Origin: Methanomicrobia archaeon LH_S13
GTDB taxonomy: Archaea; Halobacteriota; Syntropharchaeia; Alkanophagales; Methanospirareceae
DNA: 34,045 nt
Assembly: GCA_023659785.1 (NCBI GenBank)
Contig: JAGXOR010000003.1
Location: 1-34,045, forward strand
Reading direction: 5' to 3'
Under the pieces are notes generated by a model. It did not search any database. It worked only from the letters and a program-made list of their open reading frames with translations, and was not told the DNA's origin. Of this stretch, positions 1,852 through 12,238 are shown one piece after another. Within the stretch, counting starts at the first letter, position 1; each line of letters begins with the position of its first letter. Position numbers and translations under genes: made by a program.

Positions 1852-2505
1852 TTACAAATAGACTTCTTTTACGAATTCATAATTCCTTTTGACATTACTT
1901 TTCCCTTCTATTATCGCACCATGCCCGGGCAACAAAAGCTCGGTATCCAGTATTGACACCTTCTTAATAGAGCTTTTCAGCTCTTCTTTGTTTCCAAAAG
2001 GCAAATCAGTCCTTCCTACGCTTTTCTCAAACACCAAATCTCCGCATATCAATATCTTTTTAGCCAAAGTGTAAAAACAAACGCTTCCTGGAGAATGCCC
2101 TGGTGTATGTATTATCTTCAACCCTGTATTTCCTATATTCAACTTATCCTCAAGCACCAAATCCGCATCGAATTTCTTTTCCATGCCGATACCAATGAAC
2201 TTCGAAGCTTCCTCAGCCATAATATCAAGATATCTTAGTTGTGATGGATGTAGTGCAACTTTTGCACCAGAAAGTTCCTTAAGTGCTACTGTTGCGTCAC
2301 AATGGTCAGGATGAAGATGTGTAATCATTATCAAATCAACTTCTTTCGTGTCTATTCCGTCCTCTCGCATTTCTTCGAGTTTCCGCTCAAGATAATTTTC
2401 TGATCCCGGATCTATGAGCACGGTGATTTTATCTTTTATCACGTAAGTGTTTGCATCAAGAAATCCCCTCTCCTCGTACCAATACACGTCATCTTGAATT
2501 CTCAT
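1852..2505 (-). CDS. MBL-fold metallo-hydrolase (glyoxalase II-like)
   Basis: THLHPDH, HTPGHSPGS, GD and LLPGHG motifs. Confidence 0.9.
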   Translation of the reverse strand: MRIQDDVYWYEERGFLDANTYVIKDKITVLIDPGSENYLERKLEEMREDGIDTKEVDLIMITHLHPDHCDATVALKELSGAKVALHPSQLRYLDIMAEEASKFIGIGMEKKFDADLVLEDKLNIGNTGLKIIHTPGHSPGSVCFYTLAKKILICGDLVFEKSVGRTDLPFGNKEELKSSIKKVSILDTELLLPGHGAIIEGKSNVKRNYEFVKEVYL

Positions 2506-2548: not shown

Positions 2549-3808
2549 TTATAAAGAAAGTTTTGCCAATTCATCCACTATCTCCTCTGCAATCACTTTT
2601 TTCGCACCTTTTACATGCTTTACTCCCTCTGCTCCTCCTCTTATTATATACACCTCGTTTTCTTTGGTCCCTATGCCCCCCTTACCAACATCATTTACAA
2701 CTACCATCTCAATGTTATGATTCTCCATCTTTTCCCTCGCCGCGCTTATCAGTTCCTCTTTAGAGACGTCCGTTTCTGCTTTAAATCCTACAATAACAAG
2801 TTCAGGGAATTCATCCCTCACTTCTTCTATCAGTTTCCCGGTGGGAACGAGATGCAAGTAGAACTCTTCGCCCGATGAAATCTTCGCTTCGGACGAGTCG
2901 GCAGTGAAATCCGAGATAGCGGCAGAAGAAATAAGCACGTCATATCCTTCCTCTTCCTCTTTCTCTTTACCTTCACGAAATTCAGTAACGCATGCATCAA
3001 TCATCTCACGTGCAGTCTCCACCCTGACTTCCTTTATTCCATCTAAATTCAACGGCGTTTTGCTGTGCACAAGCGTAACCTCAGCACCTTGTTTATACGC
3101 TTCCTTAACGAGTTCAATCCCCGTGCGACCCGAACTTCGATTTGTTAATATCCGTATAGGGTCTATCGGCTCGATGGTAGGTCCCCCTGTAATAAGGATA
3201 CGCTTTCCTGCAAGCTTTTTTAGCGACAGCACACGCTCAACCGCGAGAATTATGTCTTCAGTCGAGGCGATTTTCGCAAGTCCTTCCTCAAATTTAGGTC
3301 CTATTACGGTTACGCCGAGTTTTCGCAGCTTGTCGTGGTTCGCGATTAGAATCGGGTTTTTATACATGGTCTCGTGCATAGCAGGCACGACTATAATGGG
3401 TATTCCAGAGCCGAAGGCAGTGGTTGCAAATGCCGTTACGGGTGTATCCGAAACACCACCCGCTATCTTGTTCAGCGTGTTTGCCGTACAGGGTGCGATG
3501 ATAAACAGGTCTGCTGAACCTTCCATCCCCAAAAACACCACATGCTCTATATTCCCCATTAATTTCGTTATCACCTCATGCCCCGTGGCATAATGAAGCG
3601 TATAAGGATGAATTATTTCCATTGCCGCTTCACTCATCACCCCATACACATCTGCACCATGTCTTATCAATTCATGTGCGAGTTCAACGGTTCTTACCGC
3701 GGCGATAGAGCCAGTAACACCTAATACAATGCTCTTTCCTGATAAAGCGTGGCTTTTTGTGCCCTTTATTCTCAAGGTTGGGTGTGACCCTCTTTCTCCC
3801 TCCGCCAT
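2549..3808 (-). CDS. coaBC: Bifunctional phosphopantothenoylcysteine decarboxylase / phosphopantothenate-cysteine ligase
   Basis: LGVTGSIAA, IAPCTANTL, PAMHETM, ITGGPTIEPIDPIRILTNRSSGRTG, VGFKAE. Start moved to ATG 3808 because the longer ORF runs through tRNA-Ala. Confidence 0.93.
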   Translation of the reverse strand: MAEGERGSHPTLRIKGTKSHALSGKSIVLGVTGSIAAVRTVELAHELIRHGADVYGVMSEAAMEIIHPYTLHYATGHEVITKLMGNIEHVVFLGMEGSADLFIIAPCTANTLNKIAGGVSDTPVTAFATTAFGSGIPIIVVPAMHETMYKNPILIANHDKLRKLGVTVIGPKFEEGLAKIASTEDIILAVERVLSLKKLAGKRILITGGPTIEPIDPIRILTNRSSGRTGIELVKEAYKQGAEVTLVHSKTPLNLDGIKEVRVETAREMIDACVTEFREGKEKEEEEGYDVLISSAAISDFTADSSEAKISSGEEFYLHLVPTGKLIEEVRDEFPELVIVGFKAETDVSKEELISAAREKMENHNIEMVVVNDVGKGGIGTKENEVYIIRGGAEGVKHVKGAKKVIAEEIVDELAKLSL

Positions 3809-3810
3809 AA

Positions 3811-3883
3811 TGGACCGGTCGGGATTTGAACCCGAGGCCTCCCGCACGCCAAGCGAGTGATCTTCCAACTGATCTACCGGCCC
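3811..3883 (-). tRNA. tRNA-Ala(GGC), CCA not encoded
   Basis: GGGCCGGTAGATCAGTTGGAAGATCACTCGCTTGGCGTGCGGGAGGCCTCGGGTTCAAATCCCGACCGGTCCA folds as a cloverleaf with anticodon GGC and the G3:U70 alanine identity pair. Confidence 0.96.
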
Positions 3884-4344
3884 TATATGATATTCCCCGA
3901 TGCATCTTCTATTATCCTTTCACAATAAAAGCACCTGAATAGAGGAGGGTTCTCGCTCACCGTAATGAACTTAGAGATAACCGACTCCTTTTCCGCATTG
4001 GATATGCAATTAGGATTCGCACATCTTATAATCCCCTCTATTGACTTTGGAAGGTAAACCTTATGCTTTGCCACTACTTCAGAATCCCCTATTATGTTTA
4101 TCTTTGCGTTTGGTGCAATCAACGCGATTTTATCAACCTCCTCGGGCTTTAATTCCCTGTCTTCCACTTTTACTATGTCCTTTCTGCCCATCTTCTTGCT
4201 TCGCACATTCATCGCAACGCTTAGAACCGCGTTAGTCCTTGCATTTATCCCTAATATTTTCAGCACATTCAGCGCCTGTCCCCCTGGAATATGGTCAATA
4301 ACAGTTCCGTTTTTGATTGGCACTACTTTTAATTCTTTTTTCAT
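3883..4344 (-). CDS. pyrI: Aspartate carbamoyltransferase regulatory chain
   Basis: IKNGTVIDHI, KDIVKVE, Zn ligands CANPNCIS and CFYCE. Confidence 0.96.
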   Translation of the reverse strand: MKKELKVVPIKNGTVIDHIPGGQALNVLKILGINARTNAVLSVAMNVRSKKMGRKDIVKVEDRELKPEEVDKIALIAPNAKINIIGDSEVVAKHKVYLPKSIEGIIRCANPNCISNAEKESVISKFITVSENPPLFRCFYCERIIEDASGNII

Positions 4345-4349
4345 CTTAG

Positions 4350-4423
4350 TGGGGCCGCCGAGATTTGAACTCGGGACAACTCGGTCTTCAGCCGAGCGCT
4401 CTCCCAGCCTGAGCTACGGCCCC
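4350..4423 (-). tRNA. tRNA-Phe(GAA), CCA not encoded
   Basis: GGGGCCGTAGCTCAGGCTGGGAGAGCGCTCGGCTGAAGACCGAGTTGTCCCGAGTTCAAATCTCGGCGGCCCCA folds as a cloverleaf with anticodon GAA. Confidence 0.96.
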
Positions 4424-4444
4424 TCTTCTACACATACCCTATTT

Positions 4445-4488
4445 CTTTTTCAATTATAAATATACTCCTAATTTTATATTTCTATATA
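4445..4488. promoter_or_regulatory. Divergent AT-rich promoter region (tRNA-Phe unit / tldD)
   Basis: Minus-strand TTTATAAT lies about 30 nt upstream of the tRNA-Phe 5' end; the same block reads TTATAAA on plus about 30 nt upstream of the tldD ATG. Confidence 0.55.
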
Positions 4489-5904
4489 ATGGAAGAAGAG
4501 CTAAAAAAAGCGATGGATTCTGTAGTATCGAAAAATGCAGGAGTGAGATATGTCGATATTCGCATGGAAAAGGGTTACGCAACTGCTATCGAACTAAGAG
4601 ATGACACCCTTAGAGAGATGAGCTATGGTATAGACGAAGGCATGGGTGTAAGGGTACTATATAAAAATTCGTGGGGTTTTTCTTCCTCTAATGATATCAC
4701 AAAGCCTCGAATAAAAGATACTTTTGAAGACGCTTTGGACACCGGTAGAGCGCTGTCGCTATCGAAATCGAATAAGGATGCGGAAGCGGTAAAAATTGCA
4801 GACGCTGTACCGATAAACGACTATTTTAAACTAAAGCCGAAAATAAACCCTGATGATGTCGGCATTGAAGAGAAGAAGCACATGGTTAAAGAAGCGTATA
4901 AAGCGGCAAAGAAACACTCTCCATACATAAAAACTATCTCTACCTTATATCTGGATGGTTACGAGGAGCAGATATATGCAAATTACGATGGAAGCTACAT
5001 TGTAATGGAAATGCCGGCAGTTTTTATGCGTGTAAGGGTAGTAGCGAGAAAGGGGGATGTTTTGCAAGAAGGCACAGAGGGTATCGGAGCAGTGGCAGGT
5101 TTTGAAGTCATAGAAGAAGAAAATCCTGAGGTCGTGGGTATAAAGGCTGCGGATAAAGCTGTCAGGCTGCTTGACGCTGAGCTGCCCCCTGCGGGTGAGC
5201 TGCCTGTAATAATGGACCCGAAGCTTACAGGAGTTTTTATGCACGAAGCGCTCGGACATGCGGCAGAAGCTGACCACGTATTATACGGAGAATCAATACT
5301 AAAGGGGAAAATAGGAGAAGCAATAGCCTACGAAGGTTTGACTGTTGCTGACGATCCGACCATCGAGAACTCGCATGGGTATTATAGATACGATGATGAA
5401 GGAGCGAGGTCAAAAAGAACAGAGATGATAAAAGACGGCATCTTAGTTTCTTATTTGCATACACGGGAAACCGCAGGCAGGTTAGAAGCGATGCCAACTG
5501 CGAATGCGCGTGCCGCGGATTATTCTGAAGTTCCTTTGGTCAGGATGAGCAACACGGTAATTGAGGAAGGGGACTGGAATTTTGAAGATATGCGAGAAGA
5601 TATACGGTTTGGGATATACGCTAAAGGTATGCGAGGAGGGCAGGTGGATACAGTAAGGGGGGAATTTCAGTTCAGTGCAGAGGAAGCGTTTCTGATAGAA
5701 AAGGGTGCTCTTACAAAAAGGTTGAAAAACGTTTCTCTTTCCGGTAGAACTCTTGATGTATTGAAGAACATAGATGCCGTGGGGAATGATAAAAAGCGAG
5801 GTTCAATAGGGTTTTGCGGTAAAGACGGTCAGGAGGTACCTGTTTCTGAATACGCTCCGCATGTCCGCGTGAAGAAGATATTAGTTGGCGGGGCTTCCTC
5901 ATAG
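4489..5904 (+). CDS. tldD: TldD/PmbA family metalloprotease (TldD type)
   Basis: HEALGHAAEAD zinc motif, YDDEG, RMSNT, GFCGKDGQEVPVS. Confidence 0.92.
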   Translation: MEEELKKAMDSVVSKNAGVRYVDIRMEKGYATAIELRDDTLREMSYGIDEGMGVRVLYKNSWGFSSSNDITKPRIKDTFEDALDTGRALSLSKSNKDAEAVKIADAVPINDYFKLKPKINPDDVGIEEKKHMVKEAYKAAKKHSPYIKTISTLYLDGYEEQIYANYDGSYIVMEMPAVFMRVRVVARKGDVLQEGTEGIGAVAGFEVIEEENPEVVGIKAADKAVRLLDAELPPAGELPVIMDPKLTGVFMHEALGHAAEADHVLYGESILKGKIGEAIAYEGLTVADDPTIENSHGYYRYDDEGARSKRTEMIKDGILVSYLHTRETAGRLEAMPTANARAADYSEVPLVRMSNTVIEEGDWNFEDMREDIRFGIYAKGMRGGQVDTVRGEFQFSAEEAFLIEKGALTKRLKNVSLSGRTLDVLKNIDAVGNDKKRGSIGFCGKDGQEVPVSEYAPHVRVKKILVGGASS

Positions 5905-7700: not shown

Positions 7701-8144
7701 TTGAACTACTCCTCGCTATCGCAAGGGGCTTCCTACTTCAACGATAGAATTTAGGATTCTCTATCTGTCGCCCATCGCTATCAGTAAGGAAGGACTTTAT
7801 GCCCATATCCAGACCAACTCCGATCTTGGATATGCGCAACTTATCAAGCCTATTACCTGTCTTTATAACTTTGAACTCCGATTGATTCAGGATGAAGCTA
7901 TTGAACTGCCCGTATTTCTTATAGCGCAGCTTACCGACTTTTCTCCATCTCTTCTTCAACCCTTCCTTCTCTTCTTTCATCTTCGGCAGCATCGCCTGTA
8001 AATTATACCGGGAAGGAATCTTCTCGCTGTCATTCCAAATAGCTAAGAAGGAGTTGTAGAGCAACCTGCAGGCATATCTCTAACACCGATAACAACTTCT
8101 TTTCGTCTTCTTTCTTCGGATACAGCCGAAACTTATATGTTCAC
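7701..8144 (-). mobile_element. tnpB: IS200/IS605-family tnpB relic, internally deleted, right end intact
   Basis: N-terminal TYKFRLYP, frameshifted LYNSFL...KVGKLRYKK, RuvC-I VGLDMGIKSFLTDSDG..IENPKF. It then jumps to a right-end hairpin GAAGCCCCTTGCGATAGCGAGGAGTAGTTCAA ending at 7701. Confidence 0.85.
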
Positions 8145-12138: not shown

Positions 12139-12238
12139 AAAACCTTTCTTTAAAAAAGAAAGATAACTTTACCAAAGAAACAACTATTTTTTGATAAAAC
12201 TTTCTTCTAAAAAGTTTTAATAGAAAGGTGATAATAAA

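Follow-up and report, generated by a model that had tools for sequence, protein, structure and literature searches.

How are two housekeeping genes expressed when each begins only a few nucleotides (nt) behind a tRNA gene? The question is raised by a four-gene array in a 34,045-nt stretch of archaeal DNA (the window), which is contig C198 of a 1.54-Mb metagenome-assembled genome (MAG) of ANME-1 (Methanophagales), 85.6% complete in 264 contigs. The minus strand of the window carries, in this order, tRNA-Phe(GAA), 5 nt, pyrI, tRNA-Ala(GGC), 2 nt and coaBC. An original prediction, made from the letters alone, read the array as one transcript that is cut by tRNA maturation enzymes into two tRNAs and two effectively leaderless mRNAs, coupling pyrimidine and coenzyme A (CoA) synthesis genes to tRNA processing. 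Co-transcription followed by tRNA processing is the best reading of the array and, in our judgment, probably correct; from the sequence we infer co-transcription, the cleavages, leaderless translation and any regulatory meaning of the layout.

Layout of the array and its expression signals

The gene order and the 5-nt and 2-nt spacers agree to the base with ARAGORN, Rfam and the printed sequence. The tRNA-Phe gene (4350-4423; array coordinates are all minus strand) and the tRNA-Ala gene (3811-3883) score 65.5 and 61.1 bits against Rfam RF00005, where the gathering score is 29. Neither encodes CCA, and both acceptor stems have seven pairs, with that of tRNA-Ala (GGGCCGG/CCGGTCC) providing the identity pair G3:U70. 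ARAGORN ends tRNA-Phe at 4349, adding C4349, and Rfam ends it at 4350, the discriminator. From discriminator A4350, the spacer CTAAG (4345-4349) leads to the ATG of pyrI (3883-4344), and from discriminator A3811 the spacer TT (3809-3810) leads to that of coaBC (2549-3808). The pyrI stop TAG (3885-3883) and G1 of tRNA-Ala have their G in common, a 1-nt overlap that the original prediction had missed. Each of the two tRNAs occurs once among the 42 tRNA genes of the 85.6% complete MAG, in which no other tRNA-Phe was found. High scores, single copy and conservation rule out that these tRNA genes are integration relics or pseudogenes.

Both protein genes are readily identified. The 153-amino-acid (aa) product of pyrI, the regulatory chain of aspartate carbamoyltransferase, has the allosteric and zinc domains (PF01948, 1.7e-33; PF02748, 1.7e-15), with zinc cysteines C108, C113, C138 and C141 invariant in 21 sequences, and its ATG at 4344 is the earliest start codon in the frame. 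The 419-aa product of coaBC (Dfp), phosphopantothenoylcysteine decarboxylase/synthetase, combines an N-terminal Flavoprotein domain (PF02441, 1.1e-28) with a C-terminal DFP domain (PF04127, 1.4e-50). Its N-terminus, MAE(R)ERGPHPTLRIK, recurs in 26 related loci that show synonymous codon changes and whose upstream spacers differ in length and sequence; because conservation sets in at that codon despite these differences, the start is placed at ATG 3808.

A/T runs of at least 7 nt, sought along the minus strand (4500-2480), include a TATA-like element, TATATTTATAATT (4452-4464, minus strand), centered 35 nt before tRNA-Phe +1. The motif AATATTTATAA is found in relatives at the same distance from tRNA-Phe, and by its sequence and position we take TATATTTATAATT as the candidate promoter of the array. 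The same scan found no such run inside either tRNA gene. The claim that the only clear TATA box lies upstream of tRNA-Phe thus holds for TATATTTATAATT and for the tRNAs and needs amending for pyrI, which contains a weaker element, TTTTATT. As had also been predicted for the two spacers, a promoter or a Shine-Dalgarno (SD) sequence has no room in junctions of 5, 2 and -1 nt, and neither has a terminator; from 4423 to the coaBC stop the only run of five or more T lies within coaBC itself (3535-3531).

These signals bear on the possibility of independent transcription, in which promoters within the upstream sequence, either TTTTATT in pyrI or the T-loop of a tRNA, would drive tRNA-Ala/coaBC, pyrI or both. 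The T-loop TTCAAAT is the sole A/T-rich stretch of the tRNAs and spans -25 to -19 relative to the pyrI AUG and -22 to -16 relative to the coaBC AUG. Since an archaeal TATA box is usually centered near -26/-27, a transcript that retains the AUG would need its TATA box 4-8 nt farther away than the T-loop. The TTTTATT element (3924-3930, minus strand; the Phe-Tyr codons of the zinc motif Cys-Phe-Tyr-Cys) is the only candidate TATA inside the array for tRNA-Ala and counts against a single upstream promoter, as its center lies 44 nt before tRNA-Ala +1, which is, judged by eye, within the TATA-to-tRNA distances of other tRNAs in the MAG. It is intact in 7 of 11 relatives whose pyrI/tRNA-Ala gap is 0 or -1, and TATA-like heptamers precede tRNA-Ala in relatives with longer gaps. 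However, it is broken (TTCTAT or GTCTAT) in the other 4 of the 11, and it is identical in two congeneric loci, L008 and L009, with gaps of 41 and 0 nt. It therefore appears to track the Cys-Phe-Tyr-Cys codons and not a need for a promoter, although this is a weak test. Even as a promoter, TTTTATT would still yield a tRNA-Ala/coaBC co-transcript. We consider independent transcription unlikely.

Conservation and surroundings of the junctions in ANME-1

Synteny and spacer lengths in relatives, which the original prediction had named as a check, speak in its favor, with the tRNA-Phe/pyrI and tRNA-Ala/coaBC units kept across ANME-1. In a first sample of 24 pyrI loci of the same family, the window's own included, pyrI is followed by tRNA-Ala and coaBC in 17, and 16 of these also have tRNA-Phe before pyrI; the remaining one, L011, is truncated by a contig end. 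The other loci comprise one with tRNA-Phe only (L025), one with tRNA-Pro after pyrI (L021) and five with neither tRNA. A pooled sample of 47 loci gave 42 distinct ANME-1 pyrI loci after five duplicates were merged. Two of the 42 lack an upstream flank. Of the pyrI loci closest to that of the MAG, a few are named otherwise than ANME-1 or Methanophagales and look like mis-binned contigs. In this sample tRNA-Phe lies 5' of pyrI in 29 of 42 loci (13 of these spacers being at most 12 nt) and tRNA-Ala 3' of pyrI in 27. An open reading frame (ORF) with a coaBC-type N-terminus starts 1-38 nt past tRNA-Ala in 26 of the 27, at 2 nt in 18 of them and at 6, 10, 10, 15, 22, 22, 26 and 38 nt in the other eight; in the 27th, L040, the ATG rule used gave no coaBC start. 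In five of the 42 loci the last nucleotide of the pyrI stop is also the first of tRNA-Ala, and in six the two abut.

Pattern searches of all 68 genomes of the order, with the reversed pattern as control, found the exact tRNA-Ala 3' end followed by 2 nt and ATG in 24 genomes from 8 of 15 genera, including 8 of the 23 genomes of at least 90% completeness. The exact 5-nt tRNA-Phe/pyrI junction is present in 8 of the 68 genomes and 6 of the 15 genera, and both reversed controls gave 0. The arrangement of tRNAs and genes is beyond chance. In a PyrI tree, built from 152 columns only and midpoint-rooted, the fully compact forms make up one clade of 12 of the 44 rows (support 94/89). In another ANME-1 clade (L052, L055, L021), tRNA-Pro(TGG) replaces tRNA-Ala after pyrI; two of these loci have no gap before it, and the third has 24 nt.

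The usual context of pyrI, with pyrB directly upstream, is absent here. In other lineages pyrB lies 5' of pyrI on the same strand at 52 of 57 loci (1.3 kb away in one of these lineages, at L065), as against 0 of 23 loci named ANME-1-like, so that a tRNA gene replaces pyrB as the cistron before pyrI. The classical pyrBI operon is split in ANME-1; the pyrB of the MAG is on another contig (C110:1-861), followed by glyA within about 10 nt. A tRNA-Leu(CAG) directly adjoins the pyrI stop in a different family of the class.

Relatives with longer spacers carry signals of their own. Among 13 tRNA-Phe/pyrI spacers of at least 100 nt, nine contain AAANTTAAAT, which resembles a transcription factor B recognition element (BRE) with TATA box, 48-70 nt before the ATG, and several end in purine-rich, SD-like stretches at the ATG. 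Most long gaps between pyrI and tRNA-Ala have TATA-like heptamers, and the 15-nt tRNA-Ala/coaBC spacer of the closest relative contains GAGGT. To judge by these motifs, spacer length and expression signals vary together. The promoter-like motifs between the two units in many relatives point to two separable modules, tRNA-Phe/pyrI and tRNA-Ala/coaBC, which by the same evidence have separate promoters in some species and are fused in one clade, that of the window. A difference in SD-like motifs, found in 0 of 17 spacers of at most 12 nt and in 9 of 20 of 13-40 nt, was discarded as evidence, because 9 of 20 is not clearly above chance for spacers of that length and those of at most 12 nt are trivially too short.

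A 14-mer, CTTTACCAAAGAAA, occurs 22 times in the MAG with at most one mismatch, against 1 in shuffles; one copy lies in the window (12167-12180, plus strand), and several are about 45-60 nt ahead of tRNA genes. It is also present between pyrI and tRNA-Ala in L008, L018, L041 and L046. The 41-nt insert that parts the two genes in L008 comprises CTTTACCAAAGAAA, a small hairpin and a TATA-like run, while the genes abut in L009 of the same genus. The 14-mer may act as a portable mini-element that bears a promoter, or a factor may bind to it.

Upstream of the array, a divergent gene of the TldD/PmbA family (4489-5904, plus strand; identified as an ORF and by Pfam) begins 65 nt from tRNA-Phe, and this divergent pair is kept in G007, a genome of a distant ANME-1 genus. 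The single TATA element in the 65-nt gap (4424-4488), the near-palindromic TATATTTATAATT, would by its position fit both directions, with a tRNA leader of about 8 nt and a near-leaderless TldD mRNA, and may serve the TldD gene as well. On the other side, a gene of the metallo-beta-lactamase fold (1852-2505, minus strand; ORF and Pfam) lies 43 nt past coaBC and may be a further cistron of the array or have its own promoter. The gap before it (2517-2546) holds a tandem pentamer run, (TTAGA)x3 then (TTAAA)x2, which ends 11 nt before the ATG, with an A/T-rich pentamer repeat at 2530-2517. The run may be a promoter or slippage-prone DNA. Further away, a short ORF (7738-8064, minus strand) resembles, on inspection by eye, part of an IS200/IS605-type TnpB/OrfB.

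tRNA-adjoining genes across the genome and related lineages

The two junctions of the window have counterparts elsewhere in the MAG. Two ARAGORN modes together list 42 tRNA genes in it, and downstream of seven of these, within 12 nt and on the same strand, starts an ATG ORF of 150 aa or more. The chance level at random positions is 2.7%, so that 1.1 would be expected (binomial 1.2e-4). On the 5' side, an ORF of at least 100 codons ends within 25 nt of 7 of the 42 tRNAs, against 2.7% at random positions. The partner genes are RaSEA, moaA, a TIGR00375-family gene, uppS, an FAD oxidoreductase, pyrI and coaBC, with proS at 20 nt, and in several of the partner ORFs the NCBIfam profile begins at residue 1-6. 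A run of at least four T in the next 30 nt is found after 0 of 9 ORF-adjoining tRNAs (junctions of at most 20 nt) and after 14 of the 33 others, a contrast that is partly trivial, as these 30 nt are mostly coding in the former. Six of the eight tRNA/gene pairs recur in G007 as orthologues beside the same tRNA; its tRNA-Phe is followed by a YchF-like GTPase, not by pyrI. The original prediction had singled out pyrimidine and CoA synthesis as coupled to tRNA processing. That part was not borne out: the same layout stands before unrelated genes such as moaA, proS, uppS and RaSEA, and with partners so diverse a coupling specific to these two pathways is unsupported as the main explanation.

ORF starts within 12 nt of a tRNA were also counted for the 30 best-scoring tRNAs of each of seven other genomes. 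There are four of 30 in G007 and two of 30 in G026 of the same order, where aRF1 starts at 0 nt and pyrE at 1 nt. The four of 30 in G029, of the same class, are pheS 2 nt past tRNA-Phe, cysS 3 nt past tRNA-Cys, GGGPS at 7 nt and apgM at 11 nt. The first two are cognate pairs of tRNA and synthetase (tRNA-Phe(GAA)/pheS at L219 and tRNA-Cys(GCA)/cysS at L230), whose NCBIfam profiles start at residues 5 and 1. G028, also of the class, has two doubtful cases of 30, and the outgroups of the same phylum have one doubtful case of 30 (G039) and none of 30 each (G038 and G040). We discounted tRNA-Phe/trpF in G039, where residue 13, the first that the profile covers, is a second Met; tRNA-Phe/RecJ in G028, where the profile starts at residue 51; and tRNA-Val in G028, where the ATG overlaps the discriminator in GC-rich DNA. 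At L225 of G029 the ORF runs through a tRNA cluster, an artefact that was dropped. In total, 17-19 of 162 tRNAs in the class compare with 1 (doubtful) of 90 in the three outgroups (Fisher p ~0.001-0.003, for related genomes that are not independent and only three outgroups). This is an indication, though no proof, that tRNA/ORF abutment is specific to the lineage. One tRNA-Gly(CCC) of G026 (L191) is flush on both sides, the TAG of the upstream ORF abutting its 5' end and the aRF1 ATG lying 0 nt from its 3' end.

These counts also bear on whether the adjacency is simply a by-product of genome compaction with no effect on expression, or comes from a chimeric contig. The MAG is indeed small and in many pieces, and spacer lengths are labile, as the 41-nt and 0-nt gaps of L008 and L009 illustrate. 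Against this, the two junctions were found again in 24 and 8 genomes that were assembled independently, tRNAs retain the same partner genes even in distant genera, and the outgroups differ from the class. Compaction may explain how the layout arose, but pyrI and coaBC would still need to be expressed without a promoter of their own. We regard an adjacency without consequence, or a chimera, as highly improbable.

Processing, translation and meaning of the array

The enzymes that the preferred reading calls for are encoded in the MAG, with an RNase P RNA (C253:5195-5470, minus strand, 195.5 bits) and an RNase Z gene (C253:4216-5109, plus strand, 366 bits). The two genes are convergent neighbors about 85 nt apart, so that both tRNA end-processing activities lie side by side. 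The claim that archaeal tRNase Z cuts after the discriminator agrees with a study on two methanogen RNase Z enzymes (PMC7479834). Both enzymes cut CCA-less precursor tRNAs just past the discriminator and tolerate trailers of up to 150 nt with reduced activity. Extensions of 5-10 nt at the 5' end inhibit them, so that RNase P should act first. In Haloferax in vivo, according to another report (PMC4946936), RNase P and tRNase Z free an RNA set between tRNA-like elements.

We propose that a single transcript would start from the TATA-like element about 35 nt before tRNA-Phe and run through tRNA-Phe, pyrI, tRNA-Ala and coaBC. RNase P would cut at G4423 and G3883 and RNase Z after A4350 and after A3811, and the two released tRNAs would then be given CCA. 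The pyrI mRNA would begin as 5'-P-CUAAG-AUG and, after the cut at G3883, end in UA-3'; the coaBC mRNA would begin as 5'-P-UU-AUG. With leaders too short for an SD sequence, both would be translated in a leaderless manner, and only after cleavage. As a habit of the lineage, seen in ANME-1 and related families, a sizeable minority of tRNA genes would serve as 5' modules, from each of which a conserved housekeeping gene borrows its promoter and, through tRNA 3' processing, obtains its 5' end.

An alternative that accepts co-transcription is that processing does not enable translation, either because ribosomes initiate internally on the uncut precursor or because the tRNA is kept as a protective 5' structure. 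Archaea do translate internal cistrons without SD sites, relatives with spacers of 15-38 nt, some of which contain SD-like motifs, could initiate uncut, and the intact pyrI TAG exists only before RNase P cuts at G3883. In the window, however, spacers of 2-5 nt put the acceptor stem 3-6 nt before the AUG, inside the footprint of the small ribosomal subunit, which covers about 12-15 nt of mRNA 5' of the start codon; an uncut tRNA fold would fill the mRNA channel of the ribosome. With no room for an SD sequence and a folded tRNA so close to the AUG, cleavage is most likely a precondition of translation. In addition, as single-copy genes in the MAG, both tRNAs must be released in functional form, and their release cuts the junction. 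Translation that does not depend on processing therefore appears rather improbable.

Several observations nevertheless weigh against co-transcription with processing as set out above. The fully compact form is confined to the one clade of 12 tree rows, and the promoter-like motifs between the modules of many relatives imply that the four-gene transcript is not a family trait. In 5 of 42 loci, the window's among them, the RNase P cut would deprive the pyrI mRNA of its stop, leaving UA. Possible outcomes are that pyrI is translated before the cut, that the end receives an A-rich tail, or that non-stop ribosomes are rescued; exosomes tail RNA 3' ends, and the exosome genes Rrp41/Rrp42 are encoded in the MAG. 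If RNase Z needs a matured 5' end, as PMC7479834 suggests, the cut at G3883 must precede release of the coaBC mRNA. The trailers here would also measure 460-1260 nt, when the activity reported there is already reduced at 150 nt. As for translation, an SD-like motif precedes about 37% of 623 well-defined starts in the MAG, against 13% in a control window, so that starts without one are common. Upstream of the MAG's ATGs, no strong TATA peak was seen at about 30 nt, and leaderless translation is not known as common in this organism.

The RNA evidence consists of assembled (Logan) contigs from cold-seep RNA libraries that contain relatives. Libraries X1 and X4 are probably DNA, while X2 and X3 are labeled metatranscriptomic. 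Record 14 of X2 (148 letters) and record 23 of X3 (620 letters) bridge tRNA-Phe and pyrI of relatives with 12-nt spacers, although these contigs may derive from DNA, and another X3 contig, also of possible DNA origin, joins tRNA-Ala to 83 letters that translate as the beginning of CoaBC in a relative of the L048 type. One of these X3 contigs also extends at least 255 letters 5' of tRNA-Phe, beyond the putative promoter, which makes DNA carry-over or other transcription possible, and assembled contigs show neither transcript ends nor single molecules.

The principle of co-transcribing a tRNA with an mRNA and excising it is already known. The E. coli thrU-tyrU-glyT-thrT-tufB operon joins tRNAs and a housekeeping gene under one promoter, and tRNA-processing nucleases cut the precursor. 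It differs from the present array in being bacterial, in its sizeable spacer with an SD sequence and in having no leaderless product and no ORF that ends at a tRNA 5' end. In mitochondria, tRNA punctuation was reportedly described by Ojala, Montoya and Attardi in 1981. The array resembles it in that tRNA genes lie 0-5 nt from protein genes of the same strand, the ends of the mRNAs would be set by RNase P and RNase Z, the mRNAs would be leaderless, and a stop codon would be cut to UA by RNase P. Unlike mitochondria, ANME-1 archaea live freely, their RNase P is RNA-based and their genomes have many promoters. About one in six tRNAs is involved (no more than 7 of the 42 are followed by an ORF within 12 nt), which argues against a mitochondrial-type use across the whole genome.

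Archaeal precedents are described in PMC4247193. In T. kodakarensis, a tRNA-Lys lies in the 159-nt 5' untranslated region (UTR) of TK0306 and is apparently co-transcribed. Here too an archaeal tRNA stands ahead of a protein gene, and its release by tRNA processing enzymes is implied. TK0306 is, however, one reported case with a long UTR (the supplement may list more), whereas the ANME-1 pairs have 0-12-nt spacers that would leave a leaderless message, are conserved across the family and number several per genome. The same paper cites tRNA-small nucleolar RNA (snoRNA) dicistrons in N. equitans and plants. These and the tRNA-like elements of Haloferax show that archaeal RNase P and tRNase Z free, in vivo and with exact ends, a neighboring RNA that is not itself a tRNA. 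What they release in those cases is a small RNA (CRISPR RNA, C/D box small RNA or 5S rRNA), while in ANME-1 it would be an mRNA whose translation hinges on the cut. A search of the full-text literature, with supplements and subscription journals outside its scope, did not find tRNA-abutted ORFs in ANME-1 or archaeal mRNAs made leaderless by processing. What appears to be new is the flush abutment that would leave leaderless mRNAs, the ORF stop shared with a tRNA 5' end, the family-wide conservation of tRNA/gene pairs and their recurrence in related families, including the cognate pairs of tRNA and synthetase.

Beyond this locus, we tentatively propose that ANME-1 and its sister families practice a partial, free-living form of tRNA punctuation. 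In them some 10-17% of tRNA genes would have the dedicated role of a 5' module, excised by RNase P and RNase Z to make leaderless mRNAs of conserved housekeeping genes, in one family those of pheS and cysS, and the UA half-stop of pyrI in the compact clade would be tailed or rescued. If this is true, the lineage would be a free-living counterpart in nature to the punctuation of organelles, down to a stop codon severed by RNase P, and a natural precedent for the tRNA-flanked processing cassettes of synthetic biology. ANME-1 archaea, which have not been cultured, drive the anaerobic oxidation of methane, and to our knowledge almost nothing is known of their gene expression. Were the proposal to hold, promoter and operon prediction in ANME-1 must count tRNAs as operon members. 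The expression of tRNA-adjoining genes would be tied to transcription of the tRNAs and to the capacity of RNase P/Z, and the amounts of the encoded proteins would depend on the strength of the tRNA promoters and on how active RNase P/Z are.

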